Below are positions 12,959 through 19,116 of a stretch of DNA of 64,000 nt, in pieces. Origin of the DNA: Escherichia coli. Its GTDB lineage: Bacteria > Pseudomonadota > Gammaproteobacteria > Enterobacterales > Enterobacteriaceae. The notes under the pieces were generated by a model. The model did not search any database and had not been told where the DNA came from. It was given only the letters and a program-made list of their open reading frames with translations. Position 1 is the stretch's first letter. Every line of letters starts with the position of its first letter. The stretch lies in NCBI RefSeq assembly GCF_022846255.1, contig NZ_AP025682.1; one strand, given 5' to 3'. A program made the translations under genes and the position numbers.

Positions 12959-13057
12959 TGCCGGATACGGCGTAAACGCCTTGCCAGGCCTACAAAATCG
13001 TCCAAATTCAATATATTGCGGGGACTGCGTAGGCCTGTTCGGCATAGCGCATCAGGC
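12959..13057. repeat. BIME/REP element downstream of msrA
   Basis: tgccggatacggcgtaaacgccttgccaggcctac and gtaggcctgttcggcatagcgcatcaggc, inverted REP units. Confidence 0.75.
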
Positions 13058-13234
13058 AGTTTTTCATTTTTCAGCTGTCTGAATTTTAACCCTCTGGCGG
13101 CTTTACAGTACCTTACGCTATACTAGCCACTGAAAATGCCGGTTCACTTTCTTCGAATCGGCTTTCAATGTGTATTTCACACAAATTAATCAACTTCCCC
13201 TTCCGAGGATCTGGCCTGAAAGGTCGGATAAGAT

Positions 13235-14578
13235 ATGTTAAACAGTATTTTAGTCATACTCTGTTTGATCGCTGTAAGTGCGTTCTTCTCGATGTCCGAG
13301 ATCTCGCTTGCCGCCTCACGCAAAATCAAACTTAAACTGCTGGCTGATGAAGGCAATATAAATGCCCAACGCGTTTTGAATATGCAGGAAAATCCCGGCA
13401 TGTTCTTTACCGTGGTCCAGATCGGTCTGAACGCAGTGGCGATTCTCGGCGGTATCGTCGGTGATGCGGCATTTTCTCCAGCTTTTCACAGCCTGTTCTC
13501 CCGCTATATGTCGGCAGAACTCTCTGAGCAACTGAGCTTTATTCTCTCTTTCTCGTTAGTGACTGGCATGTTTATCCTGTTTGCGGATTTAACCCCGAAA
13601 CGCATCGGTATGATTGCGCCAGAAGCTGTGGCTTTGCGTATCATCAACCCGATGCGCTTCTGCCTGTACGTTTGCACCCCGCTGGTGTGGTTCTTCAACG
13701 GACTGGCGAACATAATCTTCCGTATTTTCAAACTGCCAATGGTACGTAAAGATGACATCACTTCTGATGACATCTACGCGGTAGTGGAAGCCGGTGCGCT
13801 GGCGGGCGTGTTACGTAAACAGGAACACGAGCTGATTGAAAACGTCTTTGAACTAGAATCCCGTACCGTTCCGTCGTCAATGACACCGCGTGAAAACGTG
13901 ATTTGGTTTGATCTCCACGAAGATGAGCAAAGTCTGAAGAATAAGGTGGCGGAACATCCGCACTCTAAGTTCCTCGTCTGTAATGAAGATATTGACCACA
14001 TCATCGGCTATGTCGATTCTAAAGACCTGCTGAACCGCGTGCTGGCTAACCAAAGCCTGGCACTGAACAGCGGCGTACAAATTCGCAACACGCTGATTGT
14101 GCCGGATACGTTAACCCTTTCAGAAGCGTTGGAAAGTTTTAAAACCGCAGGTGAAGACTTCGCGGTGATCATGAACGAGTACGCGCTGGTAGTGGGGATC
14201 ATCACCCTCAACGACGTGATGACCACGCTGATGGGCGATCTGGTCGGTCAGGGGCTGGAAGAGCAGATTGTCGCCCGTGATGAGAACTCATGGCTGATAG
14301 ATGGCGGCACTCCGATTGACGACGTCATGCGCGTGCTGGATATTGACGAGTTCCCGCAGTCGGGCAACTACGAAACCATCGGCGGCTTTATGATGTTTAT
14401 GCTGCGTAAGATCCCGAAACGCACCGATTCGGTGAAATTCGCCGGCTACAAATTTGAAGTGGTGGATATCGATAACTACCGCATCGACCAGCTGCTGGTG
14501 ACCCGAATCGACAGCAAAGCCACCGCCCTTTCGCCAAAACTGCCTGACGCTAAAGATAAAGAAGAAAGCGTCGCATAA
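13235..14578 (+). CDS. ytfL: Inner-membrane CNNM/CorC-family protein YtfL (PaeA), DUF21-CBS-CorC_HlyC
   Basis: 447-aa ORF with N-terminal TM helices and C-terminal CBS/CorC region; matches E. coli YtfL. Confidence 0.93.
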   Translation: MLNSILVILCLIAVSAFFSMSEISLAASRKIKLKLLADEGNINAQRVLNMQENPGMFFTVVQIGLNAVAILGGIVGDAAFSPAFHSLFSRYMSAELSEQLSFILSFSLVTGMFILFADLTPKRIGMIAPEAVALRIINPMRFCLYVCTPLVWFFNGLANIIFRIFKLPMVRKDDITSDDIYAVVEAGALAGVLRKQEHELIENVFELESRTVPSSMTPRENVIWFDLHEDEQSLKNKVAEHPHSKFLVCNEDIDHIIGYVDSKDLLNRVLANQSLALNSGVQIRNTLIVPDTLTLSEALESFKTAGEDFAVIMNEYALVVGIITLNDVMTTLMGDLVGQGLEEQIVARDENSWLIDGGTPIDDVMRVLDIDEFPQSGNYETIGGFMMFMLRKIPKRTDSVKFAGYKFEVVDIDNYRIDQLLVTRIDSKATALSPKLPDAKDKEESVA

Positions 14579-14655
14579 CCCCAGAAACATCAACGGCTCC
14601 TGAATCAGGAGCCGTCTTATTACTGCATAGCACTTTTTACTGCATAGCACTTTGG

Positions 14656-14862
14656 TTAAGCCATCTCTGTTTGCAGACGCATAACCTGACGGTTAACTTC
14701 GGACATCACTGACAAATGCAGCTTATCCTTCACTTTTGGGATAAGAATCTTACCCTTATCAAATTCAAAAGCGCCAACGTCCTTGATGTATAACCGTCCA
14801 CGGAACAGGATCTTTACGTACTTCGCCACCTGAAGTGGGTTGTACCGTTGGAAAATTTTCAT
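14656..14862 (-). CDS. ytfK: Small protein YtfK (DUF1107)
   Basis: 68-aa product from ATG at 14862 ([38 protein letters not shown]...) preceded by AGGAGA. Confidence 0.88.
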
Positions 14863-15186
14863 TGTTATCTCCTGCTGAGTATTACGCCTTTGCGGTGCCA
14901 CAATCGGCCCAACTATTATGAGGCGCAAATTTTAATGCCTAGTGACTATAGACTATCCGGGCAATGTTTCCACCGCGTATAACTTTTTTTACCTAAAGGT
15001 TACAATTATTCAGAATTATCTTTTTACCGAAGCGCGGTCTTCAGTATAAGCATTCATTTTTCATATGATTTGTGCGCTTGACCGCAAACTGGCATCACAC
15101 TTGCGGGAAATTCGATAAATAGCACATATGATTAAAACTCAGACCCAAGTGGTCGGATCACCTGCATATCATAAGAAGGAAACACC

Positions 15187-15744
15187 ATGACCCTACGCAA
15201 GATTCTGGCACTCACCTGCCTGCTGTTGCCGATGATGGCTTCCGCACATCAGTTCGAAACCGGTCAGCGAGTGCCGCCGATTGGCATCACCGATCGTGGC
15301 GAGTTGGTGCTTGATAAAGATCAGTTTAGCTACAAAACCTGGAACAGCGCGCAGTTAGTGGGAAAAGTGCGAGTACTGCAACATATTGCTGGTCGCACCT
15401 CTGCAAAAGAGAAAAACGCGACGCTGATTGAAGCGATTAAATCAGCGAAGTTACCGCACGATCGTTACCAGACCACCACCATTGTTAACACCGACGACGC
15501 GATTCCGGGTTCAGGGATGTTTGTGCGCAGCAGTCTGGAGAGTAATAAAAAGCTTTATCCCTGGTCGCAGTTTATTGTTGATAGCAATGGCGTCGCACGC
15601 GGTGCCTGGCAGCTGGATGAAAAAAGTTCCGCTGTAGTGGTGCTGGATAAAGACGGTCGCGTGCAATGGGCCAAAGACGGGGCACTTACTCAGGAAGAGG
15701 TGCAGCAAGTGATGGACCTGCTGCATAAATTAATTAATAAATAG
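15187..15744 (+). CDS. ytfJ: Periplasmic protein YtfJ (DUF1107/YtfJ_HI0045 family)
   Basis: 185-aa ORF with signal peptide ([20 protein letters not shown]); 3' end overlaps cysQ 3' end by 11 bp (convergent). Confidence 0.9.
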
Positions 15745-16474
15745 ACACTCTGAACCCCGGATTCAGGAACGACTCGCGCGGAGTGTAATCCAGCGGTTTA
15801 CCCTGCCAGTCGTGAACGTGCGCTCCGGCAGCTGCAGCCACAGCATGACCAGCGGCGGTATCCCAAATATTCGTTGGCCCGAAACGCGGGTACAGCTGCG
15901 CCTGTCCTTCCGCCACCAGGCAGAATTTCAGCGAAGAGCCGATGGACGTGGTCTGATGTTCGCCAAGCTGTTGCAGATACTCTTTCAGCTCCGCATCTGC
16001 ATGGGAACGGCTGATCACCACCAGCGGCGGGCGCGCATCGCGGACCTGAATCTGCTTGCGCACACCGCACTCTTCTTTCCAGGCTTTGCCTTCTGCCGCG
16101 CTGTACATTACGTTCATTACCGGCGCATACACCACACCTAAAATCGGTTTACCGTGGTCGATGAGCGCAATGTTAACGGTGAATTCGCCATTACGTTTAA
16201 TAAACTCTTTAGTACCATCCAGCGGGTCTACCAGCCAGTAACGCTGCCAGTGCTGACGGACTTCCCAACCGGGAGGATCTTCTTCAGAAAGGACCGGAAT
16301 ATCCGGTGTCAGCGTACGTAAACCGTCCATGATAACGGTGTGAGCGGCAATATCCGCTGCCGTTACCGGAGAATTGTCCGCTTTGCTGACGACGTCCATC
16401 GGTTTCGTCCCGTCGTAGACCTGCATAATGGCATCGCCTGCATTCCGTGCAAGCTGGCATACTTGATCTAACAT
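15734..16474 (-). CDS. cysQ: 3'(2'),5'-bisphosphate nucleotidase CysQ
   Basis: 246-aa ORF, inositol monophosphatase-family motifs ([15 protein letters not shown]). Confidence 0.95.
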
Positions 16475-16663
16475 TTCTCCACCTCGTCTCTGTGAGCGGT
16501 GTTAACTTATTGTTTTACTTATACCCTATCGTTAATGAATGCGCCAACTGTGATAGTGTCATCATTTTCAAAGCGTAAAATTGTGGCATTCTTCACTGTT
16601 CTATAAGTAAGACGTTTATTCTCCCTTTTCTTTCGTATTCCCGATGATAAAAGGATGTCCCTG

Positions 16664-18607
16664 ATGATTAAGTTTAGCGCAACGCTCCTGGCCACGCTGA
16701 TTGCCGCCAGTGTGAATGCAGCGACGGTCGATCTGCGTATCATGGAAACCACTGATCTGCATAGCAACATGATGGATTTCGATTATTACAAAGACACCGC
16801 CACGGAAAAATTCGGACTGGTACGTACGGCAAGCCTGATTAACGATGCCCGCAATGAAGTGAAAAACAGCGTACTGGTCGATAACGGCGATTTGATTCAG
16901 GGGAGTCCGCTGGCAGATTACATGTCGGCGAAAGGATTAAAAGCAGGTGATATTCACCCGGTCTATAAGGCATTAAATACGCTGGACTATACCGTCGGCA
17001 CGCTTGGCAACCACGAGTTTAACTACGGTCTGGATTATCTGAAAAATGCGCTGGCGGGAGCGAAATTCCCTTATGTAAATGCCAACGTCATTGACGCCAG
17101 AACCAAACAGCCAATGTTTACACCGTATTTAATTAAAGACACCGAAGTGGTCGATAAAGACGGAAAAAAACAGACGCTGAAGATTGGTTATATTGGCGTC
17201 GTCCCGCCACAAATCATGGGCTGGGATAAAGCTAATTTATCCGGGAAAGTGACGGTGAATGATATTACCGAAACCGTGCGCAAATACGTGCCTGAAATGC
17301 GCGAGAAAGGTGCCGATGTCGTTGTCGTTCTGGCGCATTCCGGGCTGTCTGCCGATCCGTATAAAGTGATGGCGGAAAACTCAGTTTATTACCTCAGTGA
17401 AATTCCGGGCGTTAACGCCATTATGTTTGGCCATGCTCACGCCGTTTTCCCAGGTAAAGATTTTGCTGATATCGAAGGGGCTGATATCGCGAAAGGCACG
17501 CTGAATGGTGTTCCGGCGGTAATGCCAGGCATGTGGGGCGATCATCTTGGTGTGGTCGACTTACAACTCAGTAATGACAGCGGTAAATGGCAGGTGACGC
17601 AGGCGAAAGCGGAAGCACGGCCGATTTACGACATCGCGAATAAAAAATCCCTCGCGGCGGAAGACAGCAAGCTGGTAGAAACACTCAAAGCCGATCACGA
17701 TGCCACACGCCAGTTCGTCAGCAAGCCAATCGGTAAATCTGCCGACAATATGTATAGCTATCTGGCGCTTGTGCAGGACGATCCGACCGTGCAGGTGGTG
17801 AACAACGCGCAAAAAGCGTATGTCGAGCATTACATTCAGGGCGATCCGGATCTGGCAAAACTGCCAGTGCTTTCAGCTGCCGCACCGTTTAAAGTTGGTG
17901 GTCGCAAAAATGACCCGGCAAGCTATGTGGAGGTGGAAAAAGGCCAGTTGACCTTCCGTAATGCCGCCGATCTTTATCTCTACCCCAATACGCTGATTGT
18001 GGTGAAAGCCAGCGGTAAAGAGGTGAAAGAGTGGCTGGAGTGCTCCGCCGGACAGTTTAACCAGATTGATCCTAACAGCACGAAACCACAGTCACTCATC
18101 AACTGGGATGGTTTCCGCACCTATAACTTTGATGTTATTGATGGTGTGAATTATCAGATTGATGTTACCCAGCCCGCCCGTTATGACGGCGAGTGCCAGA
18201 TGATTAATGCCAATGCGGAAAGGATTAAGAACCTGACCTTTAACGGCAAGCCGATTGATCCGAACGCCATGTTCCTCGTTGCCACCAATAACTATCGCGC
18301 TTACGGCGGCAAATTTGCCGGTACGGGCGACAGCCATATCGCTTTTGCTTCACCGGATGAGAACCGCTCGGTGCTGGCAGCGTGGATTGCTGATGAGTCG
18401 AAACGTGCGGGGGAAATTCACCCGGCGGCAGATAACAACTGGCGTTTAGCACCAATAGCTGGCGATAAGAAACTGGATATCCGTTTCGAAACCTCTCCGT
18501 CAGATAAAGCCGCAGCGTTTATTAAAGAGAAAGGGCAGTATCCGATGAATAAAGTCGCGACCGATGATATCGGGTTTGCGATTTATCAGGTGGATCTGAG
18601 TAAGTAA
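16664..18607 (+). CDS. cpdB: 2',3'-cyclic-nucleotide 2'-phosphodiesterase/3'-nucleotidase CpdB (periplasmic)
   Basis: 647-aa product from ATG at 16664 ([19 protein letters not shown] signal peptide), metallophosphatase + 5'-nucleotidase C-terminal domain motifs (GNHEFN). Confidence 0.95.
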
Positions 18608-18620
18608 AACACTTCTTTTT

Positions 18621-18735
18621 CGGCCTACAAATCATCAACCGCATCCGGCATTTATTGGCGGATGCGATGCTGACGCATCTTATCCGCCCTACAAGCCATG
18701 AACCGTAGTCCGGATAAGCGCAGCGCATCCGGCAG
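18621..18735. repeat. BIME/REP cluster between cpdB and ytfH
   Basis: Multiple REP-like palindromic units (cggcctacaa..., gcatccggca, cggatgcgatgctgacgcatcttatccgccctac, gtagtccggataagcgcagcgcatccggcag). Confidence 0.75.
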
Positions 18736-19116
18736 TTATGCCGCACGTTCATCCCGCACCGCTAACACCTCGGGCAAATTCAACTCAATCCAGTCCGCCA
18801 GTGCAGCAACCTTTTCGCTCACCTGCTCGCCCAGCGGCGTGAGGCTATATTCCACATGCGGCGGCACCACCGGATACGCGATACGGTTAAGAAAACCATC
18901 CTGCTCTAGCGCCTGTAACGACTGCGCAAGCATCTTTTCACTCACCCCGCCGATTTTGCGCCGCAGGTCGCTAAAGCGATGAGTACCTTCGCGTAGCGCC
19001 ACCAGAATCAACACCCCCCAACGGCTGGTGACGTGTTTCAAAACCTCGCGCGACGGACACTGTTCAGCGAAGAGATTTCCCTCTTTGAGTTGTTGCGACA
19101 GGCTAACCTGACTCAT
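18736..19116 (-). CDS. ytfH: HxlR-family transcriptional regulator YtfH
   Basis: 126-aa product from ATG at 19116 (MSQVSLSQQLKEGNLFAEQCPSREVLKHVTSRWGVLILVAL...), HxlR-type winged helix. Confidence 0.9.
   Translation of the reverse strand: MSQVSLSQQLKEGNLFAEQCPSREVLKHVTSRWGVLILVALREGTHRFSDLRRKIGGVSEKMLAQSLQALEQDGFLNRIAYPVVPPHVEYSLTPLGEQVSEKVAALADWIELNLPEVLAVRDERAA

Follow-up and report, generated by a model that had tools for sequence, protein, structure and literature searches.

The cysQ/ytfJ junction of Escherichia coli: an ancestral tail-to-tail overlap and a candidate cysQ 3'-end stem-loop within ytfJ

In Escherichia coli K-12, the convergent genes cysQ and ytfJ stand apart, with the orphan gene ytfI between them. 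In the window (the whole 64,000-nucleotide stretch of E. coli DNA analyzed here), the two genes overlap at their 3' ends. Which arrangement is the older, and where can the elements that form the two transcript ends lie? The compact form has no intergenic DNA, so whatever acts beyond the stop codon of one gene must be located in the other. Our reading as a whole, which we hold to be highly probable, is that the compact junction is ancestral, that ytfI was inserted later, and that an element for the cysQ 3' end probably lies within ytfJ.

The overlap in the window and across Enterobacteriaceae

ytfJ (15187-15744, plus strand) encodes 185 amino acids and ends in a TAG codon at 15742-15744. Its product is a periplasmic YtfJ family protein (PF09695 YtfJ_HI0045, E=1.5e-77 in Pfam) with the C-terminus ...LLHKLINK*. 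cysQ (15734-16474, minus strand; 246 amino acids) has its TAA stop codon read at 15736-15734 and encodes 3'(2'),5'-bisphosphate nucleotidase (PF00459 Inositol_P, E=8.6e-52 in Pfam), which ends in ...NPGFRVSIY*. An earlier note, made from the letters of this DNA, had placed an 11-bp overlap of the two genes at 15734-15744 with no ytfI between them; the open reading frame list and the sequence agree exactly with the overlap, which reads TTAATAAATAG and contains both stop codons. Nothing lies between the genes, and no ytfI homologue is found there. The two genes are on opposite strands, share 3' coding nucleotides, and are coding to the stop in both frames, as expected of a convergent overlapping pair. 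The Pfam domains of both proteins extend near their ends, and the C-termini are conserved up to the stops in 74 other species (YtfJ ...HKLLxK*, CysQ ...NPGFRVSIY*). Because of this conservation, the overlap is real and is neither a chance feature nor the result of a mis-called stop. E. coli Nissle 1917 is 100% identical to the window over a 1,288-bp stretch covering cysQ and ytfJ, and the RefSeq annotation of that identical DNA likewise shows the two genes overlapping.

The earlier note had placed ytfI between cysQ and ytfJ in K-12, and this was correct: in MG1655 the order is cysQ at 4436755-4437495 (plus), ytfI (b4215) at 4437707-4438645 (plus), and ytfJ at 4438708-4439262 (minus), with ytfI separating the two genes. 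Alignment with K-12 by blastn defined a clean indel. Two window segments, 13000-15729 and 15734-19000, match K-12 at 98.5% identity and flank the islet there, and the breakpoints and junction sequences leave 4 bp in the window (15730-15733, the empty insertion site) in place of a 1,225-bp segment found in K-12 only (NC_000913.3 4437496-4438720), which carries ytfI. This islet has a GC content of 34.6%, compared to 50.1% for its flanks, and variant alleles have 32-33%. The native C-terminus of CysQ (...VSIY*) is kept in both the window and K-12, and the protein differs at one of 246 residues. K-12 YtfJ is one residue shorter, ending in ...LLQKLLK* where the window has ...LLHKLINK*.

Species-representative genomes were scanned with YtfJ, and 80 of 268 relatives, all Enterobacteriaceae, were compared, with both stop codons located in each. 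cysQ and ytfJ overlap by 11, 7, or 4 bp in 74 of these 80 species loci. The 11-bp form (TYARTAAATAG) is found in Escherichia whittamii and two other Escherichia species, Citrobacter, Salmonella enterica subsp. arizonae, Klebsiella, Raoultella, and Kosakonia; the 7-bp form in Enterobacter, Lelliottia, Leclercia, and Pluralibacter; and the 4-bp form in Yokenella, Trabulsiella, and Kluyvera (K. ascorbata and K. georgiana). A protein search also identified YtfJ of 185 amino acids, as expected where the genes overlap, in E. marmotae, E. fergusonii, S. bongori, S. enterica, and C. rodentium. That search was word-indexed and reaches close relatives only; distant synteny was taken from the representative search and from contigs. 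No ytfI was found at the orthologous site in 79 of the 80 species loci, the exception being a genome labelled E. coli. Because the overlap is present in 74 of 80 species loci, genome comparison identifies it as the ancestral state and ytfI as an insertion, with no deletion in the window.

The site is empty, with cysQ and ytfJ contiguous, in about 3,800 of 5,426 complete E. coli genomes, and 1,623 (approximately 30%), including O157:H7 and O55:H7 strains, carry DNA similar to the K-12 islet. The earlier note had left open whether ytfI is an insertion specific to the K-12 lineage or was deleted here. The outgroups show that it is an insertion, but the restriction to K-12 does not hold given the 1,623 carriers. 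K-12 has the derived, minority state at this junction, and maps of cysQ and ytfJ 3' ends made in K-12 for that reason do not apply to other enterics or to the majority of E. coli. As it was first written, the finding matters little, being a known orphan-gene polymorphism with the window in the common ancestral state.

A stem-loop inside ytfJ

The sole modestly new item, as far as sequence analysis can carry it, is a synonymously constrained stem-loop of ytfJ beyond the cysQ stop. It lies at 15701-15725 in ytfJ codons 172-180, with arms at 15716-15725 and 15701-15710, and the minus strand is favored. In the cysQ-sense RNA it reads UGCAGCAGGU-CCAUC-ACUUGCUGCA and starts 8 nt beyond the cysQ stop. 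The stem is 9-10 bp long, and its free energy is -14.6 kcal/mol for the window sequence and averages -18.4 kcal/mol across species; folding of the minus-strand region at this position gave z=-2.35. RNAalifold returned one helix of 8 pairs for the 74 species, UGCAGCAG(G)-N7-(C)CUGCUGCA. Pairing is essentially invariant in the 74 overlapping species, and every one of the 584 sequence-by-pair cells holds a standard pair. A U tract 3' of the stem is absent on either side (the next bases are CACCUCUUCCUG, with a mean of 3.9 T per 10 nt), and the consensus terminator scan did not call the 15701-15725 stem-loop. With a classical intrinsic terminator it shares a GC-rich hairpin soon after the cysQ stop; it differs in having no U tract and, because of this, would not be one. 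We consider the stem-loop a likely candidate for a 3'-end-forming or protective element of the cysQ mRNA.

Synonymous entropy is near zero in 4 of the 131 conserved degenerate ytfJ codons, and three of the four are in the arms (V172 GTG, Q173 CAG, and L179 CTG). Q174, A177, and L178 also have low entropy, while the other Leu codons in ytfJ have 1.2-2.3 bits. Comparably invariant codons in cysQ number 6 of 200. Synonymous constraint at the stem-loop is clearly elevated, with codon bias as a confounder, and such bias contributes to the invariance of the arms because CTG and CAG are the codons that enterics prefer for Leu and Gln. The main rival explanation takes this further: the stem-loop would have no nucleic-acid function and would be a by-product of the conserved peptide VQQV..ALLH written in the favored codons CAG and CTG, which are reverse complements of each other. 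We regard this as unlikely, though it has evidence on its side. Six of the eight pairs never vary (uninformative either way as covariation), neither strand has a U tract, and the distant homologues without the hairpin are also without the QQ...LL residues. Against it, other conserved Leu and Gln codons in ytfJ vary freely, and invariance of this degree is confined to the few codons counted above, three of the four in ytfJ being in the arms. Moreover, where pairs do vary, the changes are compensatory or give G.U, and never a mismatch on the minus strand: one pair changes from G-C to A-U in three sequences.

Comparison of junction types also bears on the by-product explanation. Distant YtfJ homologues and their contigs were inspected, of which three are non-syntenic and two are syntenic (L090 and L092). 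The stem-loop is kept in L090, which has a 39-bp overlap. It is absent from L092, where a 52-bp spacer separates the genes and contains a strong hairpin; the loss of the in-frame hairpin from a syntenic genome that has one between the genes argues against a mere by-product. The stem-loop is also absent from the three non-syntenic ytfJ homologues. The distant homologues without it differ in amino acids at the same codons as well, so absence there is weak evidence. A further argument against the by-product explanation comes from loci in which cysQ and ytfJ have been split by inserted DNA, since every insert brings a replacement hairpin adjoining cysQ; in each of these occupied alleles a strong hairpin stands 4-20 nt beyond the cysQ stop. 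The 39-bp overlap of L090, an enterobacterial genome (3068-3106; GCA_051783725.1), results from a 16-residue C-terminal extension of YtfJ that is antisense of the cysQ tail.

A second explanation accepts a function but assigns it elsewhere. The stem-loop could serve the ytfJ-sense RNA, as a stabilizer or a translational pause near the stop, or could be a palindrome in the DNA to which a dimeric protein binds, with no part in cysQ at all. Free energy does not discriminate between the strands (-18.4 versus -18.8 kcal/mol), and the plus-strand form is slightly more stable in 48 of 74 species. The sequence is a near-perfect palindrome (TGCAGCAGG-N7-CCTGCTGCA), and K-12, whose cysQ transcripts stop short of the stem-loop, has kept it unaltered. 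That retention is also expected for a function in cysQ because the insertion is recent. In favor of the minus strand, all four one-sided changes (in the window, L007, L033, and L015) give G.U on the cysQ-sense strand and C.A on the ytfJ-sense strand, a strand assignment that depends on about three independent G.U events. In ytfJ mRNA the stem-loop is also part of the translated sequence, 17 nt upstream of the stop, and would be opened by passing ribosomes, and its presence or absence follows the type of cysQ junction. A role for ytfJ-sense RNA or for a DNA-binding protein is accordingly improbable in our judgment.

A role in cysQ 3'-end formation or protection is the reading that we prefer. 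In its full form, put forward tentatively as possible, cysQ/ytfJ would be a natural case of a 3'-end element (a protective or terminating stem-loop, or a positioner of polymerase collisions) held within an opposing coding sequence by synonymous purifying selection throughout the family. Each insert that splits the genes would then have to supply or duplicate a hairpin on the cysQ side, the inserts in question being ytfI in E. coli, a pentapeptide-repeat gene in E. albertii, a radical-SAM pair in C. youngae, and a peptidase in Kluyvera.

Transcript ends and known systems

In the proposed mechanism, an element for the 3' end of cysQ mRNA would be encoded in the ytfJ reading frame and fixed by selection on synonymous sites. 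cysQ transcripts terminated by Rho or by collision may be trimmed back to the stem-loop, or the stem-loop may position the converging RNA polymerases. Both possibilities have precedents. Rho-dependent transcripts carry protective 3' stem-loops without a U-rich stretch (Dar & Sorek 2018, NAR, PMC6061677). The stem-loop in ytfJ is like these in its free energy (approximately -18 kcal/mol), its place just past a stop codon, and the absence of a U-rich stretch after it. On that strand, three of the 50-nt windows among the first four after the stem are C-rich and G-poor (C/G ratio 1.6-2.1), which is weak evidence for a rut-like region because an antisense gene strand is commonly rich in C. Unlike the protective stem-loops, this candidate lies inside the coding sequence of a convergent neighbor and is kept by synonymous constraint.

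A stem-loop has also been reported to be required for setting where RNA polymerases collide between convergent genes (Wang, Watters, Ju, Liu, bioRxiv 10.1101/2022.10.23.513370). As in the bidirectional terminators of that study, cysQ and ytfJ converge on one palindromic stem-loop at their boundary, which transcripts from both directions can form. Typical bidirectional terminators are intergenic and flanked by A/U tracts, whereas this one is in an open reading frame and has no tracts. Its position in the frame and the lack of A/U tracts mean that it cannot end the ytfJ mRNA without producing non-stop transcripts.

The ytfJ side gave a different result. The earlier note had reasoned that overlapping 3' ends imply a terminator for each gene inside the coding sequence of the other. 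For cysQ this has some support in the conserved stem-loop in ytfJ, a candidate without a U tract; for ytfJ it was not borne out, as cysQ has no conserved structure in the corresponding place. RNAalifold found none in cysQ downstream of the ytfJ stop on either strand, and a second alignment extending 130 nt into cysQ gave only weak, scattered long-range pairs on both strands. Synonymous constraint was not detected in cysQ codons 236-246. Because cysQ lacks a conserved structure, ytfJ transcripts would probably extend antisense into cysQ and be halted there by Rho or by head-on collision.

The consensus scan did call a small hairpin, CUGAAUCCGGGGUUCAG, at 15750-15766 on the minus strand, in the cysQ codons for L-N-P-G-F-R and with a T-rich tail running through the cysQ stop. 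It was rejected as a conserved cysQ terminator: it is found in Escherichia only, lies upstream of the stop of cysQ itself, and has no RNAalifold consensus in the 74 species. In most genera the same P-G-F-R codons give another hairpin, CCCGG/CCGGG, in a shifted register. The hairpin matches a terminator consensus only and is probably incidental.

Published K-12 data describe the occupied junction. Term-seq placed the primary cysQ 3' end at 4437540/4437542 (Adams et al. 2021, PMC7815308, supplementary files 1 and 2). This end lies 45-47 nt downstream of the cysQ stop codon and follows the hairpin of the islet by 4-6 nt. The same study reported a Rho termination region downstream of ytfJ, antisense to ytfI, and its bicyclomycin data place Rho termination regions inside ytfI on both strands, at 4437751 (plus) and 4438394 (minus) (PMC7815308, supplementary file 2). 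The regions in ytfI fit Rho silencing of transcription that enters the AT-rich islet from cysQ and from ytfJ.

For the compact arrangement, synonymous recoding of ytfJ codons 172-180 may affect cysQ expression. If the stem-loop is functional, the junction would be a simple and tractable case of overlapping convergent genes that define their transcript ends without intergenic DNA.

The ytfI islet and other inserts at the cysQ stop

The presence/absence polymorphism of ytfI is already in the literature. ytfI was described as a K-12-specific, H-NS-bound insertion missing from SE11 and SE15 (Higashi et al. 2016, PLoS Genet, PMC4720273, S10 Fig), with H-NS binding at K-12 ytfI reported by ChAP-seq (PMC4720273). 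The locus and polymorphism in the window are the same, the window being a further empty-site strain, and the AT-richness of the islet is in keeping with that description. Three strains were compared in that study and the change was not polarized. The present analysis adds the ancestral empty state (from 74 species), the presence of the islet in several diverged alleles (80-100% nucleotide identity) in approximately 30% of E. coli, and unrelated inserts at the same spot.

Identity of the 1,623 E. coli islets to that of K-12 is at least 99% in 366, 95-99% in 1,207, 90-95% in 29, and 80-90% in 21. The allele classes are far more diverged from one another than the flanking genes are (L003 and L008). 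No Pfam family was found for YtfI. A PADLOC match of YtfI to Cas6b is weak (E=8e-4) and was set aside as meaningless. Searches for YtfI homologues in phage and genuine plasmid records returned none. The only matches filed under plasmids were in PLSDB: NZ_CP141089.1 (4.94 Mb) and NZ_CP134663.1 (4.90 Mb), which are chromosome-sized E. coli records in a plasmid collection, and a 655-kb replicon present under two accessions.

The six of 80 species loci in which cysQ and ytfJ do not overlap have unrelated inserts at the cysQ stop. One, the E. coli-labelled genome, has a variant of ytfI. E. albertii NBRC 107761 has a 1,504-bp insert with 33% GC that encodes a 385-amino acid pentapeptide-repeat protein (L010:5556-7059; also L002:2499-4002). 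Citrobacter youngae ATCC 29220 has a 2.1-kb insert encoding two proteins (L047:5559-7678), and two Kluyvera species have an insert of 905 bp that is not AT-rich and encodes an S11 D-Ala-D-Ala carboxypeptidase-like protein (L061:5556-6459 and L064:5556-6460). The sixth, K. intermedia, has a 71-bp spacer with a related CAGCAG/CTGCTG hairpin (L070:5556-5626). The unrelated 1,504-bp pentapeptide-repeat insert is also present in two of the 5,426 complete E. coli genomes.

No clear target-site duplication or attachment site was found for the islet. No integrase or transposase is encoded in the 1.2-kb islet, which is flanked by at most a 4-nt TYAR repeat. When the junctions of four insert types were compared for target-site duplications, TYAR at the cysQ stop was not convincing. 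The sole clear duplication, a 42-bp copy of the end of ytfJ with the native hairpin, adjoins cysQ in C. youngae.

From these comparisons we conclude that cysQ and ytfJ were tail to tail with a 4-11 bp overlap before the genera of Enterobacteriaceae diverged. A foreign, AT-rich islet of approximately 1.2 kb with the orphan gene ytfI then entered some E. coli lineages at the cysQ stop codon. The insertion swapped the last codons of ytfJ (...HKLLNK* to ...QKLLK*) and brought its own hairpins, and the islet was never present in the window. That the lineage of the window (phylogroup B2, Nissle-like) once had ytfI and that a deletion made the overlap secondarily is extremely improbable: islets of this type are polymorphic and can be lost, as in strain ETEC1738, where an IS1-mediated deletion took ytfI and part of ytfJ, but the same 11-bp sequence and YtfJ C-terminal pattern occur family-wide, with the overlap in 74 of 80 species and in other Escherichia, so that a deletion would need to re-create the overlap sequence exactly; the islet has 34.6% GC against 50% in its flanks, and the sole loss observed, that of ETEC1738, left a scar of IS1 and a truncated ytfJ. 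Under the history of insertion that we prefer, individual strains may conceivably have returned to the empty allele by homologous recombination, and the overlap would still not be secondary.

In ETEC1738 (NZ_CP122768.1, L085:3001-4294), IS1 stands 215 bp after cysQ, and most of the islet and the 3' third of ytfJ are gone; ytfJ is annotated there as a pseudogene. We considered this partial islet as an intermediate of insertion and rejected that in favor of an IS1-mediated deletion.

The two proteins of the C. youngae insert are a 298-amino acid membrane protein with a Cys/Gly/Ser-rich repeat end (...SSCGGSSCGGSSCSGSSCGGSGCGGCGGD) and a 350-amino acid radical-SAM/SPASM enzyme, which has weak PADLOC matches to viperin models owing to the radical-SAM core. 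Together the two resemble a peptide-maturation system.

Some records appear to be filed under the wrong organism. The two complete E. coli genomes with the pentapeptide-repeat insert are SCPM-O-B-7615 and SCPM-O-B-9504; because their cysQ is only 88% identical to that of the window, the two are probably E. albertii-like and deposited under the name E. coli. A contig labelled Chryseobacterium sp. 18061 (L030, CACSKA010000007.1) has a typical Enterobacteriaceae locus, with YtfJ 81% and CysQ 90% identical to the window, and the assembly is probably mislabelled or contaminated.
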